The translations under genes and the position numbers were made by a program. Positions 14,244 through 37,700 of a stretch of DNA of 64,000 nt are shown here, piece after piece (the first letter of the stretch is position 1; each line of letters begins with the position of its first letter). Origin of the DNA: Ostreococcus lucimarinus (lineage: Eukaryota); NCBI GenBank assembly GCA_000092065.1, contig CP000594.1, one strand, 5' to 3'. The notes below the pieces were generated by a model. That model did not search any database and had not been told where the DNA came from. It saw only the letters and a list, made by a program, of their open reading frames with translations.

Positions 14244-16775
14244 TCACTCGCGCTTGACGCGCTCTAAAGGATGCCTAGAGAAAGATGAAGCGACGGCGAC
14301 GATGGCGCAAACGTCGGCGACGGTGGAACCGATGGCGTCGAAGACGAATTTTGGCGCAAAAATCGCCCAAACCATCAAATGTCGACGGTGGATGAAGGCG
14401 CACAGGGCGGCGCACGTCGCCGCGAATGCGCGGAAGAGCGCGACTTTCATCGATACGCGCACGGTCAATCGTTGGAAAGACTCGTATGGTTCATTTTGAG
14501 TCATAGCGAACGCGAAGAGCGGAATGGCGACGGCGAGAATGATTTCACCACTCCACGTTTCAAAGCCGAGGAGAAATCCCATGCCGTAAAAGTTGAATTT
14601 GCGAAAGCCGGTGAACGCGACGGCGAAGTGTAAACCGTCAAACGAGCACGTGTGTCCTCCACCAAAAAATACAACCGTGCTCGCGAGCCATAGTCCACTG
14701 GCGACGACAGTTTCCGTGCCTTTCGAGCGCGGCGACGCGTCGACCAAGAGGCTGAGCAAACCGTCGTACAAGACGTATGTCAGCGCTACGTACGCGACGC
14801 CTAGGATTGGTCCGGCGAGCATGGCGATCGTCGGTGCGACTGAGAGTATGAAAACTCGCAGAAGACGTGCGACGTTCGCCGACGGCGACCGCGTCGACGT
14901 CTCGATCCCGTTCGCCACAGCGCCTGCGATTGAAAGCGCGTACGTCGCACGGGCGAGCGCGATTCCTTCGCCTTTGAAAACTAAAATTTGCACGCTCCGA
15001 ATCGCCACGGTGAGCCAGGCGCACGATGCGATGTCGACGACGCGTAACTTACCATTGTACGACGCCATCGACGCATGGCGACGAATCGCGTTCAAAGCGA
15101 CGATGACGACGACGAGCCCGCACGTTGCGATGACGACGGTGATCGCGGGCGACGCGATCGCCGTCGAGTCACTCTTCACCCACGACACTCCTAAAACATA
15201 AAGCGCACCGTTAGCAAAAAGGCACTTGCATCCACTTTGCAAGACCCCCGCTTGACCTCGTGTGAATCTCCCAAACATCGCGGCGACGATGAACGTGGCG
15301 AAGAGAAATTGCATCATCTCGCGCTCTTGCACCACGAAACTATTCGATAATCGTGCCACGGACGCTAATATCACCATAAATACACCGACGCGCGCGATCA
15401 TAAGATCTAAATCTCCATCGCGCGCGTCGTCGACTTTGTCGTACGCGAGCACGGCGTGCGCCGTGAGCGTGACGACGAGCGCGATGAAACCAACCGTCAT
15501 GCTCAACAATCCGAATTGTGCCCACTTCGCGCGCGCCAATTCTGCCACCTCATTCATGAAATCCAGCACAAACTCTGTCGTGTCTACAGATTTATTCGCT
15601 CGCACCACCTTCATGAGCGCCGCGAGGCGCGTGGTGTGTTCGGCACCAAACGGACTCGTCTTGCCGTCGCCGTACGATTGAACGTACGTCCAAATTTGCT
15701 CCGCGTTCGCGTGCATCGCGCGCACGTAAGCGGCGAACACATCGCCTCGCCCACTCGCGCGTTTCCCCTCGTGCGCGAGATTGAATACTTTTTCGTTCAC
15801 CTTTCCTAAATTTCCATGCGGTATGGGCACGCCCAGAAGCGTCGCCATCGTCGGCGCGAAGTCAATCTGTGGGAAATCATCGTCGTCTTCGCCGTCGCCG
15901 TTCCCACAGTTCTCACCTTTCGCCCAGGGGTGATACGCGAGCATGAAAGACTCCACCTCCTCGGGCGTCCCACCGCCGTGGTCTCCGTTGTCTGTCATCC
16001 CATGATCGCCGAACACGAACACCATCGCGTCGGCGTACTTTTCGTCCGCTCGCATCGCCTCGACTACGTTCTCGATATCTCGATCATTCTCCTCTAACTT
16101 TGCGCGCATGAAATCCGTCGTCGCCCCGTGCGTGTGGCCGACGTGATCGGCACCGAGCATGTGCCCTATCAAAACGTCCCAGTCATCGGGCGCGCGCAAC
16201 GCGGCCGCCATCGACGCGCGCACGCCGGCGTCCACCGTCTCCGTATCCTTCACGTCAAAGCTCGGATACATCGCCGCCCCCGCCCGAAACGTCGCGTTCA
16301 CGTCGAAAAGTTCGCTCCACGTATCGTCCCCACTGATCGCCATCCGTCGTCCATTCGCGCTCAACTGTTCGATCAAATTATCTTCCCCGAGCGTCGTCCC
16401 GCCGAACGACGCGCTCGCGTCGATAAACGTCGGCAACCCTCCCGTGAGCAATCCCTTCAACCGCTGCTGCGTCGTCGTCGGCGCGTCCGCTATGAATTTA
16501 AACACCATCCCTCGTCCTCGTTCGTTCGTCGCGTCTTCGCACCGCCTCCCCCCCCCGTATCGTCTCGCGCTCGGCAGTTTCAACCGCCGCCGCGCCTCGT
16601 CGCCCTCGTCCCTCGTCGCCGTCGTCCAATCGTGCCGCGCGCCGTCGACGACGAGCACCACCGCCTTATCGACGATCGCGCGCGCCGCGTCCGGCCTCGC
16701 GGTCGCCCTCGACGGCGATTCCACGCGCGCGAGCAGAAACCCAGACGCGAACAGTCGCAGCGCCGTAAACTTCAT
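14244..16775 (-). CDS. GPI ethanolamine-phosphate transferase (PIG-O / PIG-G / Gpi13 family)
   Basis: ATG verified at 16773-16775 (MKFTALRLF.., a signal-anchor). N-terminal alkaline-phosphatase/sulfatase-like domain (HMLGADHVGHTHG, FVFGDHGMTDNGDHGGGTPEE) followed by about 10 TM helices. The track ORF extends upstream in frame with no other plausible start. Confidence 0.85.
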   Translation of the reverse strand: MKFTALRLFASGFLLARVESPSRATARPDAARAIVDKAVVLVVDGARHDWTTATRDEGDEARRRLKLPSARRYGGGRRCEDATNERGRGMVFKFIADAPTTTQQRLKGLLTGGLPTFIDASASFGGTTLGEDNLIEQLSANGRRMAISGDDTWSELFDVNATFRAGAAMYPSFDVKDTETVDAGVRASMAAALRAPDDWDVLIGHMLGADHVGHTHGATTDFMRAKLEENDRDIENVVEAMRADEKYADAMVFVFGDHGMTDNGDHGGGTPEEVESFMLAYHPWAKGENCGNGDGEDDDDFPQIDFAPTMATLLGVPIPHGNLGKVNEKVFNLAHEGKRASGRGDVFAAYVRAMHANAEQIWTYVQSYGDGKTSPFGAEHTTRLAALMKVVRANKSVDTTEFVLDFMNEVAELARAKWAQFGLLSMTVGFIALVVTLTAHAVLAYDKVDDARDGDLDLMIARVGVFMVILASVARLSNSFVVQEREMMQFLFATFIVAAMFGRFTRGQAGVLQSGCKCLFANGALYVLGVSWVKSDSTAIASPAITVVIATCGLVVVIVALNAIRRHASMASYNGKLRVVDIASCAWLTVAIRSVQILVFKGEGIALARATYALSIAGAVANGIETSTRSPSANVARLLRVFILSVAPTIAMLAGPILGVAYVALTYVLYDGLLSLLVDASPRSKGTETVVASGLWLASTVVFFGGGHTCSFDGLHFAVAFTGFRKFNFYGMGFLLGFETWSGEIILAVAIPLFAFAMTQNEPYESFQRLTVRVSMKVALFRAFAATCAALCAFIHRRHLMVWAIFAPKFVFDAIGSTVADVCAIVAVASSFSRHPLERVKRE

Positions 16776-16916
16776 CGCCGTCGCCAGCGTCCACGCGCGC
16801 GTCCGACGCGCCGGCGACGCATCGCCGTCGCGACCGCGACGGCGCATCGCGCGCGCGCGCGCGCGTTCGTTCGAATCGAAATCGAACGCCGTCGTCGCGC
16901 GCCGGCGACTGGATGG

Positions 16917-17143
16917 TCGTCGCGCGCGCGCGCGCGCGCGCGCGCACACATTTTTATATGGCGCAATCAGAGGTATTGTACGACCTCAGCGTTCATACAA
17001 CGGCGGTGCGCGTACCCATGTATGTATTCATTACCAGAGCCACGGCGACGGCCCGCGCGTCGACCGCCGGACCCACACAGCGCAATCAGAGGTATTGTAC
17101 GACCCCAGCGTTCATATAACGACGGTGCGCGTACCGATGTACG
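16917..17143. repeat. (CG)14 tract plus two copies of a 63-bp direct repeat (period about 118 bp)
   Basis: 16917-16950 is cgcgcg...cacaca. Copy 1 at 16961..17024 and copy 2 at 17079..17143 (gcgcaatcagaggtattgtacgacc[t/c]cagcgttcata[c/t]aacg[g/a]cggtgcgcgtacc[c/g]atgta) are about 90 percent identical. They lie between divergent start codons at 16775 and 17231. Confidence 0.8.
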
Positions 17144-17230: not shown

Positions 17231-19003
17231 ATGCCGCGCGCGTCGACGCGCGACGCCGACGCGCCGGGTTCGGCGCGCGCGGACGCTCGCGCGCGCGATG
17301 CCGCGTCGACGTCGCGCGAGACGGACGACGCCGACGCGCTGGCATCGGCGCGCGCGTCCGCGCTCCTCGACGACGCGACGCTCGAGCGCGCGATGGGGGC
17401 GACGGAGCATCGACGATTCGCGTTGAAGTGTCGCGCGCTGCGGTTCCGCGCGCGACGCGCGATCGAATCGAGACGCGACGGCGACGACGACGCGGCGCGC
17501 GAGCGACGCGCGGAGGACGCGGCGACGCTGGAGGCGACGGCGGCGTTTTGGCGCGAATTGTCGAGCGACGCGTCGAGCGGGACGAGGGCGCTGACGGCGC
17601 TGTTGAGACTCGCGCTGGACGGACGCGAGGGCGCGGGATCGGACGGGACGCGCGTGTCGAGCGCGAGAGCGCTGGCGAGGGCGCACCGGCCGCGAGACGT
17701 CGACGAGGACGAGGCGCCGACGACGGAGGCGCTGTTTCGGAGCGGCGACGCGCTGCGCGCGCGGGCGACGGCGCAGAATTTCGGAAGCGGCTTCGTCGCG
17801 GGGTTGGGGGGGGTGTTGACGCTGCCGATCGCGATCCCGGCGCAGCTCGCGGCGACGACGTTTACGTCGCTGCGACTCGCGCTGGCGCTGGCGATTTTAG
17901 CGGGGAAGGATCCGCTCGAACCGTCCGTCGCGGCGAAGGCGATCGCGGCGGCGCTCGGGAGCGCGGGAAGCGCGAGCGAAGAGTTGGACGACGTCGCGAG
18001 CGTGGGCGCGGGGGTGCGGGACGGGGTGCAATACGCCGCGATTCGAGCGAGCGGCACCGCGATGCAAAACGCTTCGTGGCGATTGACGCGCGCGGCGGCG
18101 ACAAAGTTGGCGCAGCGCGGGGCGCAGCGCGGCGCGTCGATGGCGATCACTCGCGCGGTGCCGATCATCGGAGGCGTCATCGGCGGCGCCGTGGACGGCG
18201 TCGTGACGCAAAACGCGGGGAACCGCGCGATGGCGGCGTTTTTCCCGCCGCGGCCGAAGGATTGTTCGACGATTGAGGAGAGCATTCGCAAGAGTAAAGA
18301 CGAGGCGGTGGCGAACGTGAAGAACGCGGCGGAAACCGCGGCGAAAACGTTAAACGGCGCGTTCGATAAAATATCCGTATCGCTGAAGACGAGTTTCGGA
18401 AAGCAAACGGACGACGCCGAGGGCGTCGCGACGCCGACGAGCGCGGGCTATCAAAGCCGCGAACTTTTAGCCGACGACTCGTGGGAACGCTTCGAGCGCG
18501 AGCGAGAATTGGAAAACATGCGCGCCGTCTTAGAAGACGACGTCGCGTTCGACGACGTGCACGCAGACGTGTTTTCGACGAAGTCGTCGTCCACGACGAC
18601 GACGACGACGACGACGAAATCTTCGCTCAAAGACGCCGACGCCGTCGAACGCGCCGCCAGGGACAAGAAAAAAGCCGACGCGTGGGCCGAATTCGACGCC
18701 CGATGGAAAGTGTTTCACGAAGACGTCGCCGACGCGACGACGAAAGTGATTCGTTACAAAGACATTCCGTGGCCGCCGAGCACGTCGCGCGCGCTCGCCG
18801 GCTGTCGCGGCAAAAACGCCGCGCCGGACGCCACCAAACGCGCGTATCGCAAACTCATCTTGCGTTTTCACCCCGATCGTTTCTCGAGGTTCACCCTTCA
18901 CGAGAGGGACAGGGATAAAATCATGGCCAAATGCGTGGCCGTGTCCGCCGCGATTCAGACGCAGTACGCCGAAGCGACTCGCGAGTCGCGAATAGCCGAA
19001 TAG
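17231..19003 (+). CDS. C-terminal J-domain (DnaJ) protein with a Gly/Ala-rich hydrophobic central region (590 aa)
   Basis: ATG at 17231. The C-terminus carries ..DATKRAYRKLILRFHPDRFSRF.. with the HPD tripeptide of J-domains. The central segment GFVAGLGGVLTLPIAIPAQLAATTFTSLRLALALAILAGKDP resembles bacterial EcsC-family proteins (tentative). The TAG stop lies inside a heptamer microsatellite. Confidence 0.6.
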   Translation: MPRASTRDADAPGSARADARARDAASTSRETDDADALASARASALLDDATLERAMGATEHRRFALKCRALRFRARRAIESRRDGDDDAARERRAEDAATLEATAAFWRELSSDASSGTRALTALLRLALDGREGAGSDGTRVSSARALARAHRPRDVDEDEAPTTEALFRSGDALRARATAQNFGSGFVAGLGGVLTLPIAIPAQLAATTFTSLRLALALAILAGKDPLEPSVAAKAIAAALGSAGSASEELDDVASVGAGVRDGVQYAAIRASGTAMQNASWRLTRAAATKLAQRGAQRGASMAITRAVPIIGGVIGGAVDGVVTQNAGNRAMAAFFPPRPKDCSTIEESIRKSKDEAVANVKNAAETAAKTLNGAFDKISVSLKTSFGKQTDDAEGVATPTSAGYQSRELLADDSWERFERERELENMRAVLEDDVAFDDVHADVFSTKSSSTTTTTTTTKSSLKDADAVERAARDKKKADAWAEFDARWKVFHEDVADATTKVIRYKDIPWPPSTSRALAGCRGKNAAPDATKRAYRKLILRFHPDRFSRFTLHERDRDKIMAKCVAVSAAIQTQYAEATRESRIAE

Positions 19004-19183
19004 CGAATAGCGAATAGCGAATAGCGAATAGCGAATAGCGAGTAGTCAACATTTGTGATTCAATAGTCGCAGTCACACGTCGACGCGAGTCGCGAGTCGC
19101 GAGTCGCGAGTACTGTAGCGAAAAGCGAGTAGTCATCTCATCATTCGTGATTCAATAGTCGCGGTCACACGTCGACGCGATCG
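18989..19183. repeat. Composite minisatellite: (GAATAGC)6-7, then a 50-bp unit, (GAGTCGC)4, and a second 50-bp unit
   Basis: Read directly. cgaatagc repeats run 18989-19035. The direct repeats gcgagtagtca..gtgattcaatagtcgc[a/g]gtcacacgtcgacgcga occur at 19038..19088 and 19125..19180. gagtcgc x4 lies at 19087-19114. Confidence 0.85.
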
Positions 19184-19645
19184 TCGCGTGGATGCGCGCG
19201 CGCGCGGACGCGAGCGACGCGAGCGACGCCGCGCGCGACCGCGACCGCGACCGCGCGAGCGCGGCGACGCGGGACGCGGAGATCGACGGGTTTCGACTCA
19301 TTCGCGCCCTCGCGTCGAATTCAACGCTCTCGACCTCGCGCGCGTCGGTCCTCGCGTCGCTCGCGGCCGCGTTCGGCGTGTCCGCGGTCGGCGCGGCGAC
19401 GGTCGTCGCGCGCGCGCGGTCGAGGACGAAGGCGGAGCGGGACCTGCCGCGAGGAACGCACTGGAGGGCGGCGGCGCACGCGGCGCGAGCGCTGGCGGCG
19501 GCGACGAGCGGAACGGCGGCGGCGTGCCTGGGAGCGTACGGCGCGTGTCACGCGCTCGGCGTGCGAAACGTTGAAGATTTGAGAAGAACTCTGCGACGAG
19601 GGACGACGAACGCGCTGGAGGCGGCGCCGGGGGAGTTTGGGAAGG

Positions 19646-20344
19646 ATGTCGTCGGGCGAGGACGATGAGGTGGATTTGAGCGCGCTGGCGACGATTTCGG
19701 AGACGTGTCGCGAGTTTCGACGGTTGCACGAGGCGAGCGATCGAGCGATGGCGGTGATTCCGCGGTGGTACGCGCTGTGCGTGAACGATGCGGCGGTGGA
19801 GCTCGGAGAAGCGGCGACGGCGGCGACGCGAGCGGCGCCGAGCGCGCGACTGGACGCGTTTCTCGAGCGCGGGTTCGCGCACGAGAGCGAGAAGGCGCGC
19901 GCGCCGGAGAAGCTGACGAGCGCGATCGAGGACGTTGGAAGGTGCGTGGCGTTCATGGGCGATGCGGTAACGCGCGCGAACGAGGCGCTGGGAGAGTTTG
20001 TGGAGGCGACGTCGGGGAGGCGGCCGAGCGACGACGGCGACGCGCGTTGGATCGCCGACGTTCCGGTGCCGGTGATGCGCACCGCGTTCAAATGGGGCTC
20101 GGAGGAGGAGTACACCATCGAGCAGTGGCTTTGGATGGCGACATCCGTCGTTGAGCAGCTTGAGCGTGAGTTAGAGACGCGGCGTAAGATTTTAGATTAC
20201 GTGCGCGGCGGCGTCGCGAGCGCTCGAGCCGAGGAATTGGACGGATGCGTCGCCCTCTGGAGCGCGCAGCCGTTCGTAGACGATAGATTGTTCGCCATCG
20301 TGTGCGGTGATTCCGCGGACGCGGACGCCGCCGCGGCATCGTAG
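19646..20344 (+). CDS. Hypothetical protein (232 aa from the first ATG)
   Basis: The track ORF 19637 starts at TTG. The first ATG is at 19646. Composition is non-repetitive and no domain is recognised. An upstream ATG ORF 19192..19668 in another frame overlaps it (see findings). Confidence 0.4.
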   Translation: MSSGEDDEVDLSALATISETCREFRRLHEASDRAMAVIPRWYALCVNDAAVELGEAATAATRAAPSARLDAFLERGFAHESEKARAPEKLTSAIEDVGRCVAFMGDAVTRANEALGEFVEATSGRRPSDDGDARWIADVPVPVMRTAFKWGSEEEYTIEQWLWMATSVVEQLERELETRRKILDYVRGGVASARAEELDGCVALWSAQPFVDDRLFAIVCGDSADADAAAAS

Positions 20345-28706: not shown

Positions 28707-31700
28707 TCAGAGCATTCGGCTGGCGCGCTGCGCTGCGCGCGCGCGCGCAGCGGCGCGGCGGTCCGTCGGCGCGGTTTCAGTCGACGGCTCGGTCGCCGCT
28801 CGGTTATTCCGGCGCGGCGGTTCGACGACGTCGTTCGCGCGCGCGTCGGAGTCGCTCAGTTCGAGCGACTCTTTGGACTCGTCCACGTCGCCGTGGGAGT
28901 CGGAGTCGCCACCGGCGAGCTTGGTTGTATTCGGCGCGTCTTCGCCGAAACCAAAAGAGCGCATCATAGCGCGTGATTCGCGCTTTTCGATGCGACGTTG
29001 GACTCGCCAGCGAGAGTCATCCATTTTTTCTCGCCATGTCATTCGTCGACCAGATGAAGACTCTGGATCGTGCGTAACGTCGACGTGGGCCGTCGCGTTG
29101 ATTTCTTCTTGCATCACGGCTTCGAGCTCGGCGACCTTTTCGGTAGCGCTGAGCTCGTCGCGCATCTTGGTCATTTCAAAGTAGTCGTACGTGAACGGAT
29201 CAACGCTCGTCGACGCTGCGTTCGACGTCGCGGTAATAGATGATGTCGATGGTTTTCTTGGCGGTTTCGTCGGTGACTCGAGCATGATATCGGCCGACGG
29301 CGGCGTCCACGAAACCGAATCGCGCGCCGGGAGTCGCGGCGGTCGCGGGATGTAACCTGGCGGATACAAAGGCGCCGGCTTTTCGATCGATTCTTTTTCG
29401 GTTCGCTCGCTTTGTCGCGCCAGACGTAATTGTTGCGCGATGATTTCGTTGTACTGCGCCACGCGGGCCTCGACGCTGTCACGAGCTGCTTTTTCTCCTG
29501 TGGCGGCGTAGGCGGAATCGTCGCTCGCCACAGATTTGCGCTCACCCTCGCTCGAGTGCGACGCCACTTCGAACTCATCTTCAGAGGACCCACCGATGGC
29601 GGTGTTTTTCCTGCGCCAGCGCTCGTGATCGATCGCCTTGAGCTTGCGCTCGAGCGCGAGCGCTTCAATTTCGTGATCCCGATGCGCCGATTGATCCACC
29701 ATTGACGACTTGCGTGCTTGCCATTTGTTCCGCAAACTCTCCAAATGCACGCTGAGCTGAAGATGTCTCAGCTTTAAATCGTTCGCACCGGCTTTAGATA
29801 ACTCTTCTACCAGCACTTGATCGTCAAAAGCGGCGATCAGTTTCTCAGCCATTCGCGGATGCAACGCACGCGACGCCGCGTGGGTATCCACGATCGCACG
29901 TTTCACCGCCTCGCGTCTGTACGCGTGCTCGTCTTCGATTTCTTTTCGCTCAGCTTCTATCTTAGCCGCGATGACCTCGTCTTTGACGTCTCCGCGCACA
30001 GAGCGCAAGACTGTGATACAAAAGTTCAAATTCAACGCGTAAATGAGCAACGCTGCGATGACGGAGGCTGCTTGGTGCTTCACCGTGGACATCAACGCCC
30101 CGGCGTTGTAACTCACCAAAATTGTTGTCAGCGATGCGATCTCTACCTTGCGGTGTTGATCCTTCTCGTAAATGTCCAAAATCAACACCAACGCGAGGTA
30201 GCTTTGTAAGATGCCGATGGAGATGTACGCCGCGAGAAGCGGAGTTTCAGGAAGGAGCACCGAAGCTGCGACGAGCAAGCCTTTCCGCATCATCACCACG
30301 AATTCCCAGTAATACCTTTCTTGCGTGAATCCGATGTAAAGAAAGCCGTACAGCGCTTTTGTCTTTGCCCAGCGTAATTGATTCCGATGTCGTTTCAGCG
30401 CTCCAAGGATGAAATACGGAAATCCGAAGACGAATATCGAGGCTAAAATGAAATATCCATACATCGTCATCTTGTATCGAGCGTTATCAGTGCGCACGTT
30501 GTAATCGATGAACAAAAATCGTCCGATACCCTCGACAGAGGTCGAACGAATCATCTGCATGATGTTGGTAAAGATTGGGTACCAGCACATGGCGAGCGTC
30601 ACGGCTTTAAACAACCCGTTGGTGATGTCGCCCGCTGACGGCGCGAGCACTTCGAGTTCGTCCTCGGTCCATTGCTGGACAATATATCCTTCTTTATTCA
30701 CCTTTGTGAGAAGTTGCAACTTGTACGCATCCGGTTCGGAATCATTTAAATCTGGCGCGCGTTTCATGCGATCCAACTGGAATCGCAATCCTTCGACGTC
30801 TTCGCCCTCCCTTCTCGCGTTAATGTACGCCGACTCCAACGCATGCCTCTTTTCGTACCACTCACTTCGTAGTTTGAAGAACGCCGTCAGGCGAAGGTAT
30901 AAATAAAGAGGCACACACAGCGCCGCGAAGATGCCGACCGTGCCAAAACTGTACGTCGTGTACTGAATGTGATTCCACTTTGACACGCAATCCGTCGCAA
31001 ACGCCTTGATCGACGTCGTGGACGTGAGCCTGGCGAGCGGGAACAGCACGCCGACGACGTCTGGCCACCCGAGGTTGATCGTTCCGAGCGTTGCAAGCAT
31101 GTGAAAGTGAGAGACGATGACCTTGGTGTAGACGATTTGCGCTGGTAATGCGCTCCGCGCGGCGCGACAAATCAACAACATGGAGACGATTTGGACAATC
31201 GTGAGGACGAACAAGCTCATACCGCTTAGCCATTTTGGCCAACATTTCGTGCACCGCAGCGACGTTTCAAGCGAGCGCGAGTCTTCTAGACTGGCATACT
31301 CTTTTCGCGCATCACACGTACCACACAGCGTCCCAGAGTAACCGATGTTACACAATTCGTCGCCTTCACCGACGCCGCCTTTGCAGCTGTACGGTGATCG
31401 ACACCTTAGCACGCCCAACTTTGTCTCGTCGGCGCGCCAGTTGCCTTCCGAGAGAGATAATTTTGTGATGTCTCGTGAATCGCACACCGCGCCATCGGGA
31501 CAAGATCCACACTCGTACGCGTCGTACGGCTCCAATCTGTAATAACGCGTATACGTCGTCGTTCCATTTTGCGCCGGTCCAGTGAGTGTGCACTGACACG
31601 AGGTTTTGTTCACGTTTGCGAGATGGCCCGGAAGTGTTTCCCCGCTCGAAGTCACGTGCATCTGGCGCGGTTTGCCATCTTCGCCGGTGTACGTGTTCAT

Positions 31701-34700
31701 CCGTATCGGACACGCATCGCACAGTGCTGGTCCACTACCGGTTTTGTAAAAACCCGCCGCGCACGGCACACACGCACCGTACGGCCGCAACGAAGTTATG
31801 AAGCTCGAAATCCTGGATGGGTCGACTTGAGCGTAGAGACCTGGATAACTCGATACTGAAACTGACGGAGGTTGATAACCCGATCCTGAGGCGTCTTCCG
31901 TATATCCTGGATAACACTCGCACGAACCATTGGAGGTAGACTGCGAATGTGGCTTTACTGTGCTGCACGGAAAGAGCGTGAGTCCACCGGTAACGTTGAG
32001 CTCGGCGGTGCCAAGCTTAAACATAAGACTGTACGTCGTCCCGCGCCGACCGATGACTGTCAAATCTTTGAACGTCGCGAGACCGTTCGAGACGCGTTCT
32101 GACCCTCCGATCACCGCATATGGAGCCGGCGTTACTGTTACCGTCACATTATCCACTGAGTTTGTCACGACGTTGCCCGAAATATCGTAAACGGTGATTT
32201 CAAACGTTGGAAGCGATACGTTGCTGTCATAGCTCGATGGAATGCGCTGCGTACCGAACTCAAGCCTGTACGGATCTCCGGGCTCGATGATGACTTCCAG
32301 AGCATCGCCAATGAGAACCAAGTTTTGCGTTGACGTGCACTCGTTGGCTTGACATTCAGACTGAAATTCTAGCACGTAACGCCCTGCGAGCGGGCGAATG
32401 AATTTCAGCCCCGTTGCGGTGCCGACAAATCCAGGGTCGCTTCGCACGCCGTAAAAGTCCAAACCAGTCCCCGTGGTGCCAGCGACATTCGGAGGTGAAA
32501 GTCCACCAAGCGAGCGTAAATATGCGGTCTCAGCGGCGAGCTTGTTCTCGCTCGCTTCGCTACTATCTGGCGAGCAAAAGCTCTTTGCGCGATTGCTCTC
32601 TGTGCCATCGGCGCACCACGCCGCTACACCATTGACGATGTAAAGGGCGCCCACACTCACTGATCGTGAATTGCTCGGCGAACAACCAATTGTGGCGTCC
32701 GCGCACGATACGCTTGTTTCATCGGCGATGAGCGGTGACGTCACCGTTGTGGTGGACGTCGTCACTCCTGTGGCGCTCAGTGCGTACTGTTTTAGGTTGA
32801 CGTTGACGGCTCGGCGGGCTTCGGCGGTGTCCAACGAAGAGCCCATGAGTAATCCACCGGCGTCACGTGTGACGACAAAAATGTCAGTAAGATCGACGAC
32901 GTCTGCACTTTTGTATGGACGTGTATCTGTGCACAAACCGACGGGGAATTCCACGGTGACGTCAGCGCGAGCGCAATTTGGGCAACCGCACGCGTCCAGA
33001 GATGAAATATCGCCAGCCTTGATGAGAATGTCGAACGAATATGGCGTGAGGACCACGGGTGAAGGTGTCGACACAGTTACTCGATATGTCCCAGCGACGG
33101 GATTGTAGAGCCTGATGCCAGAGATTAGTCCAACGCCCGACGAGGTGGCGTATTGGCTGATTTCGGGCGGCTGCGAAAATGGGTCTTGCGTTGTCGACGT
33201 CACGTATTTTATGCCCACGCTCACATGTCGCAAGATCCCAAAGTCAGCGCTCGTGACTTCGTTTGCACCACCATCGGTAACCGTCACCGCAAACGGGGCT
33301 AATATCAGAACTCGTGCCGCCATGAGCGTTGTCGGACGACTGTACGTGGCGTCGTTTGGAGTTGGATAGCCACGCGAGCTCGGCACATTAAGTTGACTCG
33401 CATCGCCGAGGGTGATTGCCACGGCCACGCTATCCGATATCAACCCATCGCCTGCAAATGTCAAGACATACTGACCTACTTCCAGCGCTTGCGCGGTGAT
33501 GCCAGTAAATTTAACGATGGATCGTCCCATCGGCGCTGTAACCGATTTCGTAGCGTACGCTTGCGTCGTAAACGTCCTAGTCGAGTTGAATGAGGAACGT
33601 AAAGTCGCCGTGATAACCTTTGTGAACTGGTTGCTTTCCAATAACGTCCCACCAGCATCTTGCATGTGCACAGTGAATTCATCAAATAAAATGAGAGCAC
33701 TTGATTTGTATGAAGTCACGGTTTCGATGGTTGAGACGTGCTCTAGCTTCGCCGGAACACCTTCGATGATTTTCACCGTCATATCGTACGAGCTCAAGCC
33801 AGACGTGGAAAATCGGATGACATGCGTGCCCTGTGGTGGCGAACTGAGATAGAAATTACTCAGTACCACGGTCCCTGCGACTGTCGTACTACTTGTCGTA
33901 CCGAGCAACTGCGCGGTGCTATCCACCACGGAGATGGTCAAAGTGCGATTGACGCCGTCTTCGGCGAGCAGTTTGTTGCCCGCGGCGTCCACGACGTTCA
34001 GAACGAACGGTTCCGATGCACGACCAATAAGGGTGTAAGTCGATGACTTGAGCCCCACTTGACCGACCAAGCCTTCAAAGGAGTCCGGGAAGACGACGTC
34101 GAGCGACGCGGCAGAGCCCGGCCAAACGTCGTATGACACATCCACGTCAACCAAACCGGGGGATTTAAAGGTAACGATTGCCTTTCCACCGTGAATGGTG
34201 GACTTTGGAAGTCGAAATGCGATGTCGCTGAACGTCGCTGTGCCACTACTGATGGCTTTCGTGTGCGTTTGAGGTTGTGTCGCCGCGCACGCGTTTCCAG
34301 ACAACACACACGGATTCGTCCTGGCGACGTCAAACACTGCCTCAATCGTTCCGGCACAGCTCGCGTCGCCGGTGACACAGGTAGGAGAATACGCGCTCCC
34401 GACCAAATTATCGCCGCCATCCATAACGACAATGACGATTGGGCTCAAGACCACGAGCGCCGCTGACCTATACTGCGTACAAGTACACGAGGAACCACTT
34501 CGCAGGAGCGTCGTTGTCGTCGTACACAATCCTGTCCCTGTGTCGCGATATTGCACGTAATAATCATCGCAAGGCGCTCGTATAGCGAGATGGTGTGCGC
34601 GCCCGAGAGTCACAGTGATAGACTGCGTGAGATTCGAAAACGCTGGCATCGCTGGCACGTGAAATTTCAGCGTGTGCGTACCCACCTTTGCTCGTTCAAG

Positions 34701-37700
34701 CGCCAATCCCGCGAAAGTCACCGCGTTTGTCGCGACGTCAAAACTCGGACTCAATCCAGTCGACACAGCCAGCGGATCAGGAATGACAAACGCATGTCGT
34801 GTCGCAACCGTGGCATTATACGTCAAGTAATCGCTCTTCACCCCGATAGCATCGCTTGAGACGCCGGATGTGAACTCAAGGTACGCCACGACAGGAGTGT
34901 CCCCTAAAACGTAATTGACTCCATTTGCGTGCGCGTCGTACATTTGAAAATCGAACGCATCCAGAGGGACGTAATATGCCGCCGCGTAACGTCGAAACGT
35001 CGACATATTCATCACGCCAAACTCTGGTTCGTAAGTCGTCACTGGGGAGTTCGTGAGCGCAAAGCTACTCGGTACGCCTGACGTGACGGTGATGTTGAAG
35101 TTCAAATCCACGAGCGGCGAGGTGTTCGTGGACATGACGTTTCCAGAACTATCCTTCAGCGTGTTAGTCGTCGAAGAACACGTGATTCCGTGCACACCCA
35201 GCGTGACGGAAGACAAAGTCAAACCGGTGAGTACGGCGGCCCCAGTGCTCAAAGTATTGCCCGTGAGCGTTCCTGAAATAGAAAGTGTCGAGCTGGTGCA
35301 TGCGAAGGCGCGATCAACTGTGTACGAGAGCGTTGACGCATCATAACGGTCGTTCGCGCCCAAGAAGCTTCCCCCAATATCCGCCACATAAATCGTCAAA
35401 TCGCCCAGAGGCGTCGACGATCCGGCATAACGTATGTCAGAGCCGAACTCGAGGGTATGTTTCCACTGATGACCGATGTTGCCTTCGACCAGCTGAACGA
35501 GTTGCTTTGCCGGGCGAATGTAATCCGAACCAGTCGCGTAAAAGGCGATTACGTAATACCCAGCCGGTTGGACATCGAGCGTGATACTATTCGCTGCGAA
35601 CGTCCAAGTGGCTGTTCCAGTTGAATCCGTGACGCTCGTCGTGGAAGTCGGTTCGAGCGTGAAAGAGTCGCCGTATGCCCGAACGTCAACCGAGGCACCA
35701 GACTCCGGCGGCGATGTGATCAAATTATTTCCAGCGTCGTACAATCGCACCGTGATCGCGTTTGGGATGGTCAGCGTCGTTGAAGACGTCGTCATTGAGG
35801 GCACGATATGGTTATCTATCTCCAAATATCTCGGTCGACCGACCACAGTGGTGAATGCGGATATTGCCGAACCAAAGGACGCAGAGAATAGAAATCTGTA
35901 CGTCGCGTCCGCATCGTTTACTCCCCTGGACGCCGCAGGGTAGGTTAGATTGTTTACGAATATCGTTTTACCGGGTGTTCTCGCACCGATCGGTGCAGGA
36001 TTGAGAAGCTTCAAGTCACGGAATACCGCCACGCCTCGATGCGTAGACACTGTCGTGGAGCCATTGATAATCGATCCAGAGGTTCGCGGAGCGTTTGACG
36101 CGTCCACAGATGTCACCGAGATTGAGTGCGAAACTTCGTCAAAGTTGTGCAACCTGTTGCCTGCGGCGTCTAACACGTACACGTTTACGACGCCGACGTC
36201 GGATTCCTCATTAGTGGGCACCACCAATGTGTTTGTTGAGCTCGGTATCGCGGCCAATCCTACAGGCGCTCCAGGCACGACGGTGAAATGGAACGTCGTC
36301 GCCATCGCAAGGGCAATGCAACTTGAACCAGTGCAGTCTTCACCGATGACATCGACGACATAATTACCCATCCGCAAAGGTGCGCTAAAACGTAATTGAA
36401 ACGTTGCCTTACCATCCAAAGTGGTGATGGTGGACGGCACCGTCGTCATCGTCACCCCTGGTGTATCCGTGGAGAGCGAGGTGTTTAGCGTCGCCGTGAT
36501 TTTAAATCCCCGCGTCCCGCCAACGCCAAGATCATCCGCGATGACGGTGCCTCTGTTATCCACCAAGTTCACCGTCATCGCGTCGAGCGTCATTGTCGAC
36601 GCGCCAGCATCTTTCGTTGACTCATACGCAGTGTGAGCGATGTTTTGTCGCGCGTGCGTCACGCGAAGACCATTCGGCGTTCTATGCAGCGCTAGGGCGA
36701 CGCCGGTATGATAATCCACCCCATTCATGCTAAAATCCACCGTCACCGACGTCGGTGGCGGGTCTAACAACCACGGCATTTTCACGTGGTAGTCTCCACA
36801 TCCGTTTGCGCTCGTCGAAGGACAGAGGGGACACGTGACGCGTGTCGAGTTGACGTACGCCGCGTCCAACACGCTCTGAGCGCCGAATCGACATTTGAGC
36901 ACGCCGTCGACGAATGGACCGCCATCGATAGCAATTACCGCTGGATCCCCATTCGGTACTTCTCCCGTAAATAGCACCGAAGGCACGTGTGAATTCGTTA
37001 CCGACGTCGCGACGAGATTCGGCGGGTCGTAATACATGTAATTTGCCATTCCGCCGACCCATATAGAGTTTTCAAAAAACGTCGCGAGCGCGCTGCGATC
37101 GTCCGGATAACCCTCAAAACTGATACTGACGGCCGATATGTACGTACCGGTCGCCGCGAACGCACTGTACGACGGCGCATCGCATTCGATCGTTGTCGAA
37201 TTCACCAGTTTGGCTGGCACATACACGGGCGAACCGTCGTTCAAAAATCGGCACGCCACGCGGTGCGACAGAGTGTCGTCCGGGGCCCAGGAAGAGTCGT
37301 ATGGAAACCCAACACCACGAATCGTGAGCGTTGTCCCACCCGCCTTGGGTCCTCTTGAAGGGGAAATATCATCGATTTCTGTCACGGAGAAGCTTTGGTA
37401 CGAGATTTCTGCGTCCGAAACATTGTACGTCCCTGTGAACAACGCACCCATGCTTGGGATCGTCGTCATCGCACCGATCGGTCTTGTCGACGCCGTCGAC
37501 CCTTGAACTTCCATGCACGCCGATCCGACGCAGTTGGCATCCGGGAATACTTTGACTTTTACTATGCGCGTCGGAGCATTCACGTCTGACGCGTCCTGGC
37601 TCGTGAGGACGTACAGCGTCCCTCCACTCGCACCCCCATCGCTCACTGTCTCGATGGCGAGCGCATCCCTAACTAAACTACCACTCGTTCCTAACTTGAC

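Follow-up and report, generated by a model that had tools for sequence, protein, structure and literature searches.

How can a conserved gene end inside an unstable repeat whose unit length is not a multiple of three, and is the stop in all three reading frames that such a repeat provides a selected device or an accident of its arithmetic? The question is raised by a nuclear locus in Ostreococcus lucimarinus, which we examined within a 64-kb window (the whole stretch of DNA analysed), starting from a first-pass annotation that had been made from the letters of the sequence. We put at roughly 80% the probability that the array is a lineage-specific, slippage-driven compound microsatellite, tolerated across the stop codon because its units carry TAG. 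The features at the end of the gene are the following.

17231-19003, plus strand: conserved 590-aa coding sequence with a C-terminal J-like domain, from the list of open reading frames, ending ...RESRIAE-TAG
18973-19045, plus strand: degenerate heptamer array, from TRF at period 7, the parse into units and shuffles
18974-18996, plus strand: 5' inverted arm at the coding end (GCGACTCGCGAGTCGCG...), complementary to the downstream GAGTCGC run
18997, plus strand: one additional C separating the first GAATAGC unit from the second, from comparison of the window with allele L004
19001-19003, plus strand: TAG stop of the J-domain gene, inside the second GAATAGC unit, from the table of stops and frames

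The domain of the 590-aa protein is best described, from its sequence, as a divergent J-like domain. The protein has no PF00226 match above the curated cut-off: its Pfam DnaJ match is sub-threshold (E=0.0025, 18.3 bits against a cut-off of 27.8) and spans only profile positions 10-34. The J-domain label therefore derives from this sub-threshold match together with an HPD motif at residues 547-549, whose three residues (H547, P548, D549) do not vary among 14 sequences, and from the names given by the sources of the orthologues ('DnaJ domain' or 'J domain-containing protein'); two more distant orthologues, P0012 and P0013, bear precomputed PF00226 matches. Eighteen homologues were found and 13 aligned. 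The closest is 98% identical to the window protein, and its 90%-identity cluster includes an Ostreococcus sp. 'lucimarinus' UniRef entry; the cluster with the O. tauri orthologue stands at 53%. All 13 aligned orthologues end at most about 10 residues from the stop, after a conserved QY or QW, and since orthologues across the algal group all end near this point, the stop marks the true end of the gene rather than the edge of an intron. Residues after the last helix of the J-domain appear not to be conserved. An intron or introner-type repeat inside the gene was considered and rejected on the evidence of these 13 ends; the uniqueness of the repeat units in the window and the presence of a start of its own in the next open reading frame also speak against it.

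The repeat reads, in order, GACTCGC, GAGTCGC, GAATAGC, the extra C, (GAATAGC)6 and GAGTAG, and TRF scores it at 10.3 copies with 89% matches (score 102). The dimer (GAATAGC)2, with up to two mismatches, has seven matches in the window, all within 18983-19046, against 0.40 expected, a count reached in none of 100 shuffles. TAG occurs at 18993 (frame 1), 19001 (frame 0), 19008 (1), 19015 (2), 19022 (0), 19029 (1), 19036 (2) and 19043 (0), so that a stretch of 25 nt, 18993-19017, holds a stop in each of the three frames, and the gene has in-frame backups soon after its primary stop, 21 nt (19022) and 42 nt (19043) downstream. The antisense units, GCTATTC, contain no stops; TAG is thus presented on one strand only. 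These positions bear out the first-pass annotation in its claims that the coding sequence ends RESRIAE-TAG inside the repeat, that the heptamer supplies the stop together with the last codons, and that TAG appears in every frame. It had counted four repeat-derived codons and placed the start of the repeat at 18989; the repeat begins earlier, with degenerate units GACTCGC and GAGTCGC (18976-18989) coding for T-R-E-S-R, and about nine terminal codons are repeat-derived. The composite that it had drawn at 18989-19183 stands, with its onset moved to 18973-18976.

Downstream of the stop the repeat continues into a composite that reaches almost to the next gene.

19046-19088, plus strand: first copy of a 43-nt unit (TCAACATTTGTGATTCAATAGTCGCAGTCACACGTCGACGCGA), a direct repeat, from the allele maps
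19084-19111, plus strand: (GAGTCGC) run of 4.0 copies (TRF register CGCGAGT), 100% match, score 56
19112-19137, plus strand: decayed heptamer units (ACTGTAGC, GAAAAGC, GAGTAG) and a TCATC motif, from the sequence
19138-19180, plus strand: second copy of the 43-nt unit, a direct repeat kept in all lucimarinus-clade alleles
19192-19668, plus strand: next gene, a 158-aa open reading frame, from the alignment, called in all related contigs

The distance from the stop to the next ATG is 188 nt in the window, and the composite fills all of it, ending 9-12 nt before the ATG at 19192; the roughly 200-bp composite that the first-pass annotation placed in the intergenic space and a putative 3' UTR, like its second heptamer run of four GAGTCGC units, is thus real. 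Its two direct repeats are also there, at 43 nt rather than 50: the copies align ungapped at 93% identity, an exact 34-mer of the unit has just two sites in the window, and about 50 nt is reached only by adding the preceding GAGTAG and an indel. The segment at 19112-19137 joins the GAGTCGC run to the second copy, and part of it (19112-19132) is a 71% member of the repeat family. The 3' half of the second copy, GTCGCGGTCACACGTCGACGCG, lies directly upstream of the next gene and is identical in the sister lineage, which makes it a possible, sequence-based candidate for a promoter-proximal element. The 158-aa frame itself is conserved in four Ostreococcus lineages, with an invariant core RTKAERDLPxGTHWRAA in the alignment. 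A tRNA-Ala (cgc) called by ARAGORN on the minus strand at 19161-19246 was rejected: the call, 86 nt of GC-rich DNA, runs into the start of this conserved frame. For the tRNA covariance model, the window had no Rfam match that reached the gathering score, and the interval 18800-19400 had none even at E<=1. The Rfam search for known RNA families near the array returned just two sub-threshold chance matches, to the archaeal eL15 leader, one per 43-nt unit, and a promoter and terminator scan of bacterial type, ill-suited to a eukaryote, found nothing relevant.

Comparison of alleles, which the first-pass annotation had proposed as a check on copy number, was positive: 13 gap-free alleles from independent assemblies have 12 different repeat structures, with copy numbers that derive from short-read metagenome assemblies and with spacers of 175-279 nt. 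They comprise 0-10 GCATAGC units, 4-7 GAATAGC units, 1-4 units in the downstream GAGTCGC run, which is the 3' inverted arm, and one or two 43-nt units. Two deeply separated haplotype groups are present, and the first copy of the 43-nt unit occurs only in group B (the window and L004). The gene ends in four natural C-terminal tails, RIAE*, RIANSE*, RVANSE* and RDSRVAHSA*, each stopped by a repeat-borne TAG in the first 2-3 TAG-bearing units; the J-like domain is complete in all four, and their differences are confined to the last 2-6 residues. Relative to L004, the closest allele, the extra C at 18997 shifts the frame and turns RIANSE* into RIAE*, a natural frameshift absorbed by the next TAG. 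The expectation that changes in repeat number or upstream frameshifts would still be terminated is thus realised in nature, with the proviso that the extra C is confined to the window among 20 lucimarinus-clade alleles examined and so may be a sequencing error. Three-frame closure is achieved within 14-37 nt in every allele, and all 18 of 18 lucimarinus-clade alleles keep the property; TAG occurs 12-23 times per gap-free contig.

Where did the array come from? It is absent from the sister lineage, whose protein is 86-87% identical to that of the window, and which has GATAGCCAGCAATAGCCAGTAGTCATC in its place with the stop in CAATAG; the sister CAATAGCCAGTAGTCATC matches the window GAATAGCGAGTAGTCAAC at 15 of 18 positions. 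The sister sequence at this site, also given as GATAGCCAGCAATAGCCAGTAG, is a proto-repeat that already holds the stop, and the array was therefore probably seeded on the ancestral stop codon. It is absent as well from two more distant Ostreococcus lineages, an O. tauri-like one, which has a 39-nt spacer and a single TAG with no nearby out-of-frame stops, and a fourth. The array would have been born in the stop-codon region of the J-domain gene in the 'lucimarinus' clade, through duplication of a heptamer (G/C)AATAGC that bore the ancestral TAG, followed by expansion via replication slippage or unequal exchange; point mutation would have made the variants GCATAGC, GAGTAGC and GAGTCGC, and the array would have grown to fill the short spacer. 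Because the unit carries TAG and seven is not a multiple of three, a change in copy number or an indel still stops translation within three units, and this, together with the apparent lack of conservation past the last helix of the J-domain, would explain how an unstable array can be tolerated at the end of a gene.

Might the stops nevertheless be there for a purpose? TAG heptamers could have been kept to halt ribosomes in every frame after read-through or frameshifting, so that the gene region close downstream would be spared aberrant translation. The closure of three frames within 25 nt, the two in-frame backups and the retention of the property in the whole clade agree with this, as does a paper in which selection for additional in-frame stop codons is proposed in eukaryotes (PMC6764699). 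The sister lineage closes its three frames in 17 nt with no array and the fourth lineage is likewise tight, so a conserved preference at the end of this gene is possible. However, any TAG-bearing unit of period seven yields a three-frame stop automatically, and one to three units would suffice, whereas the number of TAGs per allele speaks of runaway slippage and not of need. We also compared the J-domain gene with the 28 others among the 29 approximate genes in the window: it ranks first of the 29 in how soon all three frames are closed (after 21 nt, where the median is 209 nt) and is extreme in stop density too (seven stops in 60 nt), and none of the 28 closes its frames as tightly, so that within the window there is no sign of a genome-wide selected device. 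Nor did the search for other genes ending in the same heptamer, also proposed in the first-pass annotation, yield any within the 64 kb, where no second non-triplet repeat is both stop-bearing and placed on a gene end. Among the window genes and in the O. tauri-like orthologue, extra stops were thus neither enriched over a null nor conserved from gene to gene or between lineages. We regard selection for the stops as very unlikely, and infer that the three-frame stop is permissive rather than adaptive, an arithmetic by-product of the repeat. Also very unlikely is that the copy number of the heptamer or of the 43-nt unit alters the distance or dosage of a downstream promoter, or the length of the 3'-UTR of the J-domain gene, and so gives heritable expression variation as in the hmw promoters of Haemophilus influenzae, where heptanucleotide repeats between genes are documented to tune expression (PMC8262952 and PMC12721329). 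The composite does lie 9-190 nt upstream of the ATG of the next conserved frame, it varies in length among alleles by the amounts given above, and GTCGCGGTCACACGTCGACGCG is duplicated in the window haplotype besides being identical in the sister lineage. Against this, the 39-nt spacer of the O. tauri-like lineage indicates that the promoter needs little of the region, a 22-nt identity set beside the overall divergence figure of ~87% is only weakly significant, and the variable heptamers adjoin the upstream gene, at the opposite end of the spacer from the promoter in question.

The inverted arms lend themselves to another account, in which they would form an RNA hairpin or DNA cruciform that encloses the TAG units and serves mRNA 3'-end formation or stability, or insulates the tandem genes, the heptamers of the loop being secondary. 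The inverted repeat spans 23 nt at 87% complementarity (18974-18996 and 19085-19107, with 88 nt between), is found in both haplotype groups and can be lengthened, in the RNA fold, by pairing of GTACTG (19110-19115) with CAGTAC (18962-18967). The predicted stem is stronger than in shuffles (z = -5.15, 0/200, for allele L009; z = -2.39, 2/200, for the window), which hints at structure beyond simple slippage. But GACTCGC is the reverse-complement register of GAGTCGC, so the complementarity can come from mutation of units in a palindrome-prone, CG-rich repeat; the arms vary from 1 to 4 copies, L004 lacks the GTACTG extension, the alleles compared are near-identical, and no Rfam family matches at gathering score. 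A modelled element of this kind is a long shot. So is a combined reading in which array and arms together are a selected boundary element, a three-frame stop plus hairpin that would act as an insulator between tandem neighbours which, in this minimal eukaryotic genome, are separated by less than 200 nt, in functional convergence with bacterial (GAATAGC)n-loop-(GCTATTC)n hairpins. That the repeat is collapsed or chimeric and does not exist as written is barely credible. N-gaps, which a long unstable repeat would be expected to cause in scaffolding, interrupt the array in 5 of 20 related contigs and two contigs end in it, and the extra C is confined to the window; however, more than 20 independent assemblies, made with different assemblers from different samples, show this architecture, L004 independently reproduces the two-copy haplotype of the window, and an Ostreococcus 'lucimarinus' protein entry ends with the repeat-encoded tail RVANSE. 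The gaps thus leave exact copy numbers soft, while the array itself is no artefact.

The slippage-driven microsatellite that we favour has its nearest counterpart in compound VNTRs. It shares with them head-to-tail short units, tandem copies beyond chance, variant blocks that differ by single substitutions, a copy number polymorphic among near-identical alleles in short-read assemblies, a recent, lineage-specific origin from a proto-repeat that is all the outgroup has, and the trouble it gives short-read assemblers; unlike them, it straddles a stop codon, encodes the last residues and terminator of a conserved protein, and, in a very compact genome, takes up essentially all of the intergenic spacer. 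Synthetic three-frame stop cassettes in cloning vectors space their stops so that each frame meets one within a few codons, and the array follows the same spacing logic, although it is natural, repetitive and unstable. Additional (tandem, fail-safe) in-frame stops and the out-of-frame stops of the 'ambush' hypothesis, as treated in PMC6764699, PMC5909447 and PMC2996987, resemble it in that it offers in-frame backups and out-of-frame stops and has absorbed one +1 indel; its stops, however, are made en bloc by the repeat and are not individually placed codons, neighbouring genes are not enriched in them, and the O. tauri-like orthologue lacks the feature. With the phase-variable repeats of bacteria such as those of H. 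influenzae hmw (PMC8262952, PMC12721329), the array has in common a hypermutable, non-triplet 7-nt unit at a gene boundary upstream of another gene, here overlapping the last ~9 codons of the coding sequence. The difference, beyond its being in a eukaryote, is that an ON/OFF switch is impossible, since each frame meets a stop by the third unit and the change is limited to 2-6 terminal residues that are not conserved; neither switching nor truncation of the domain is seen in the four natural tails. O. lucimarinus is reported to be an extreme outlier in tandem-repeat density, and its repeats with units longer than 6 bp exceed short ones (PMC3152781). Our literature search on the repeat sequence itself found no paper.

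The array leaves the understanding of gene termination in these algae unchanged. It illustrates how a coding boundary can accommodate a repeat of non-triplet period: when the unit bears a stop and its length is not a multiple of three, the gene end withstands slippage and indels alike. It is also a PCR-sized and highly discriminating candidate strain marker for Ostreococcus 'lucimarinus' populations, given 12 structures in 13 alleles, and intraspecific markers are, to our knowledge, scarce in this algal group. A practical warning follows as well, in that short-read assemblers break or leave gaps at the locus and the annotated C-terminus depends on the allele.

The same heptamer occurs far from Ostreococcus. 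Among the at least 120 matches listed in a metagenome scan for (GAATAGC)3 are contigs unrelated to the window, and hairpins of the form named above are found in diverse bacteria (Rhizobiales, Acidobacteriota, Gemmatimonadota, Planctomycetota and others); the scan of genome collections for the heptamer covered bacteria and archaea. These hairpins resemble the Ostreococcus array in their heptamer unit, variable copy number, intergenic position, often abutting gene ends, and inverted arms. In the bacteria, however, the TAG heptamer forms both arms, whereas in Ostreococcus the arms are GACTCGC and GAGTCGC and GAATAGC lies in the loop, and as there is no sequence relationship outside the repeat, the origins are independent. 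The idea that long open reading frames run preferentially into the bacterial arrays on the TAG strand was discarded: 36% do so on that strand against 7% on the other, but the figure at random positions is 53%, and on inspection many of these frames are antisense artefacts of GC-rich DNA. As an observation apart, the bacterial hairpins show a polarity, with TAG presented toward the loop from both sides in 101 cases and the opposite in 11.

The heptamer array at the 3' end of the J gene (the 590-aa ORF at 17231-19003, plus strand) is a real, lineage-specific, hypervariable compound microsatellite that probably grew on a stop codon, and the existence of the array itself is beyond doubt. Read 5' to 3', its units run ...CAGTACGCCGAAGC, GACTCGC, GAGTCGC, GAATAGC, a lone C, (GAATAGC)6, GAGTAG and a first 43-nt unit, followed by (GAGTCGC)3-4, GAGTACTGTAGC, GAAAAGC, GAGTAG, TCATC..., a second 43-nt unit, TCGTCGCGTGG and an ATG. 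This composite occupies the entire 188-nt spacer between the J gene and the next same-strand ORF. The double unit GAATAGCGAATAGC, with at most two mismatches allowed, has seven matches, all inside 18983-19046, where 0.40 would be expected, a count reached in none of 100 shuffles. The features of the region are as follows.

14244-16949, minus: PIGO/PIGG-type GPI ethanolamine-phosphate transferase
18973-19045: period-7 array (TRF, 10.3 copies, score 102)
18974-18996 and 19085-19107: 23-nt inverted repeat, 87% complementary, pairing coding-end units with the downstream GAGTCGC run
19046-19088 and 19138-19180: direct repeat, 43 nt ungapped, 93% identity
19052-19101 and 19144-19188, minus: sub-threshold eL15-leader matches (Rfam)
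19084-19111: perfect (CGCGAGT)4 (TRF)
19161-19246, minus: 86-nt tRNA-Ala(cgc) call (ARAGORN), overlapping the repeat end and the start of the next ORF
19192-19668, plus: next ORF, conserved in four Ostreococcus lineages, core RTKAERDLPxGTHWRAA
20434-22551, minus: MRE11

The first-pass annotation had placed the J-gene stop within a GAATAGC array presenting TAG in every frame, and this interpretation is supported. The ORF ends RESRIAE-TAG, its stop (19001-19003) lying inside the second GAATAGC unit, and the eight TAGs at 18993, 19001, 19008, 19015, 19022, 19029, 19036 and 19043 fall in frames 1, 0, 1, 2, 0, 1, 2 and 0, so that all three frames are closed between 18993 and 19017. That the repeat supplies the last codons also holds, with the refinement that degenerate units upstream already encode T-R-E-S-R. 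The second heptamer run, described as (GAGTCGC)4, is the perfect (CGCGAGT)4 found by TRF; the two direct repeats are likewise present, their 34-nt core having exactly two sites in the window, but they measure 43 nt rather than the 50 bp first proposed. Two non-coding calls fall in this stretch. Each 43-nt unit matches the archaeal eL15 leader only below threshold (24.3 and 21.8 bits, where the gathering score is 33.7), almost certainly by chance, reflecting the small hairpins GTGA...TCAC and CGTCGACG within the unit. The tRNA-Ala(cgc) call lies in GC-rich DNA and is most likely spurious, Rfam returning no tRNA at any threshold tried.

Is the repeat-borne stop the true end of the gene? Aligned orthologues all terminate about ten residues or less past the conserved QY/QW at the end of the last helix, and because they end at the same point the stop is real and an intron boundary at the repeat is ruled out. 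The J-domain label of the protein is secure only in part. Its Pfam DnaJ score, 18.3 bits, falls below the cut-off of 27.8, but HPD is invariant across 14 aligned orthologues; the closest homologue (98% identity) belongs to a 90% cluster that includes a UniRef entry 'J domain-containing protein, Ostreococcus sp. lucimarinus', and a cluster at 53% identity includes O. tauri proteins labelled 'DnaJ domain'. These homologues place the window in the nuclear DNA of the Ostreococcus 'lucimarinus' clade, and the neighbouring MRE11 and PIGO/PIGG-type genes are eukaryotic. Two more distant orthologues, P0010 and P0011, carry weak precomputed PF12787 (EcsC) matches over the central glycine/alanine-rich region, which suggests an EcsC-like domain fused to the C-terminal J-like domain. 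Within the gene, (ACG)8.3 at 18593-18617 encodes a poly-threonine tract, T8, which is itself polymorphic: the closest homologue (P0001) has T9, whereas a proline/threonine run takes its place in the sister lineage.

Variation among alleles was assessed by retrieving this locus from 22 contigs, drawn from independent assemblies of metagenomes and read archives, and parsing the repeat into units (D, GACTCGC; S, GAGTCGC; H, GCATAGC; N, GAATAGC). Eleven gap-free contigs, group A, read D D S H(3-10) gagtcc H S H S (H S) N(4-7) S(1-4) ... and then one 43-nt unit, with the protein tail RDSRVAHSA*; group B, comprising the window and its closest allele, L004, reads D S N7, 43-nt unit, S-units, second 43-nt unit. 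The suspected copy-number variation is thus borne out, with 12 distinct structures among 13 gap-free alleles and a stop-to-next-ATG distance of 175-279 nt. Among cluster members the C-terminal tail takes four forms (RIAE*, RIANSE*, RVANSE* and RDSRVAHSA*), each spelled by the first-placed units and terminated by the TAG of the second or third TAG-bearing unit. The claim that a frameshift would still meet a nearby stop has a natural example: L004 has CGAATAGCGAATAGCGAATAG, giving RIANSE*, where the window has CGAATAGCCGAATAG, giving RIAE*, and this one-base insertion is absorbed two codons downstream. The inserted base, a single extra C at 18997 after one GAATAGC unit, is a singleton and could be a sequencing error. 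Five scaffolds (L006, L007, L008, L015 and L017) carry N runs of about 100 nt inside the array, and two contigs (L021 and L022) terminate within it; short reads therefore give only approximate copy numbers, and such scaffolds call for caution when copy number is inferred from public assemblies. Gene callers nevertheless give a full-length J protein, because the stop sits in the first units.

The array is confined to one of the lineages compared. No array is present in the sister lineage, which is represented by L002, L003 and six proteins ending ADSQQ* and has 86-87% protein identity; past the shared CAGTACGCCGA this lineage reads TAGCCAGCAATAGCCAGTAGTCATC, with its stop in CAATAG. Between its CAATAGCCAGTAGTCATC and the window's GAATAGCGAGTAGTCAAC, 15 of 18 positions agree, and thus the last GAATAGC unit is positionally homologous to the ancestral stop-bearing heptamer; the microsatellite would have been seeded on the stop codon itself. 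The O. tauri-like lineage has no repeat, a single TAG and a 39-nt spacer (L143 4342-4382), and the fourth lineage has no repeat and an extra gene separating the J gene from its conserved downstream neighbour. In that lineage the stretch after the J gene (L145 4267-5417) contains a whole additional ORF of 308 aa. The spacer 3' of the J gene, 98 nt long in the sister lineage, is thus highly plastic between Ostreococcus lineages.

GACTCGC is the reverse-complement register of GAGTCGC, and the inverted repeat is extended by CAGTAC (18962-18967) and GTACTG (19110-19115). In RNA folds the TAG units lie in the loop of a long predicted stem, with a z-score of -2.39 for the window, equalled by 2 of 200 shuffles, and of -5.15 for the group-A allele L009, equalled by 0 of 200. 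The arms could go back to an inverted duplication when the array arose, could promote slippage, or could be a mere consequence of a palindrome-prone, CG-rich unit. A functional hairpin, as the predicted stem might suggest, is a minor rival, because the number of arms differs between alleles and the GTACTG extension is missing from L004.

Is three-frame termination a by-product or a device? Among 29 approximate window genes, the J gene is extreme both in the distance past the primary stop at which all three frames are stopped (21 nt against a median of 209 nt) and in having the most stops, seven, in the first 60 nt. The window holds no second non-triplet repeat that both bears a stop and touches a gene end, and shows no sign of general three-frame termination, which fits an arithmetic by-product. 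What counts against a purely neutral picture is that the sister lineage closes all frames within 17 nt and the fourth lineage within about 19 nt, both without an array, although the O. tauri-like lineage shows no such tight closure. O. lucimarinus is an extreme outlier in tandem-repeat content, with units longer than 6 bp denser than shorter ones (PMC3152781), so a 7-nt array there is unremarkable; its tolerance at a gene end probably follows from the TAG in its unit.

The array agrees with a compound variable microsatellite in every respect tested. There is a likeness to additional, fail-safe stop codons and to out-of-frame 'ambush' stops (PMC6764699, PMC5909447), but the array shows no enrichment among the window's genes and is not conserved in the O. 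tauri-like orthologue. Phase-variable repeats of bacteria, among them the heptanucleotide repeats of H. influenzae hmw promoters (PMC8262952, PMC12721329), are also similar, but the array is unable to switch the protein off. A literature search for the repeat sequence itself found no paper. The array lends itself to use as a population marker and makes a textbook-style example.

Scans with (GAATAGC)3 of metagenomes and of bacterial and archaeal genomes gave at least 120 matches each, and no contig among the matches listed is related to the window outside the repeat; on that sequence comparison, the bacterial arrays are independent of the Ostreococcus one. Many of the arrays among the matches listed make up the 5' arm of a hairpin, (GAATAGC)n - loop - (GCTATTC)n, with a median loop length of 33 nt, for example:

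L028 700-797, L072 2004-2091 and L090 2357-2450
L059, L095, L107, L128 and L062
L182 5594-5680, Rhodopseudomonas palustris BisB18
L184, L152, L163 and L174, Mesorhizobium; L197, Devosia

Among the matches listed, 57/119 and 44/119 arrays have a downstream inverted partner, against 1 and 10 of opposite polarity (TAG towards the loop on both strands, 101 against 11), copy number varies from 3 to 18, and hosts also include Acidobacteriaceae, Gemmatimonadales and Planctomycetota. Period 7 dominates the tandem repeats of the listed hairpin contigs (178/208). Rfam has no family over the six hairpins checked, and a literature search found no paper with the sequence; these hairpins may be an undescribed class of intergenic repeat. 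Cyanobacterial heptamer STRR repeats bear them a loose likeness.

Two further observations concern the window's other genes. The ORFs at 19192-19668 and 19646-20344 (plus) overlap by 23 nt in different frames, and both are conserved in four Ostreococcus lineages. Two other lineages show an overlap of 23-41 nt, and the O. tauri-like contig has a 3-nt gap instead. The two ORFs may belong to a single gene interrupted by a small intron or a frameshift, or may be two genes packed unusually tightly. The ORF at 28707-39071 (minus, 3454 codons) coincides with an 8-kb low-G+C stretch (0.50-0.56 against about 0.62 elsewhere).
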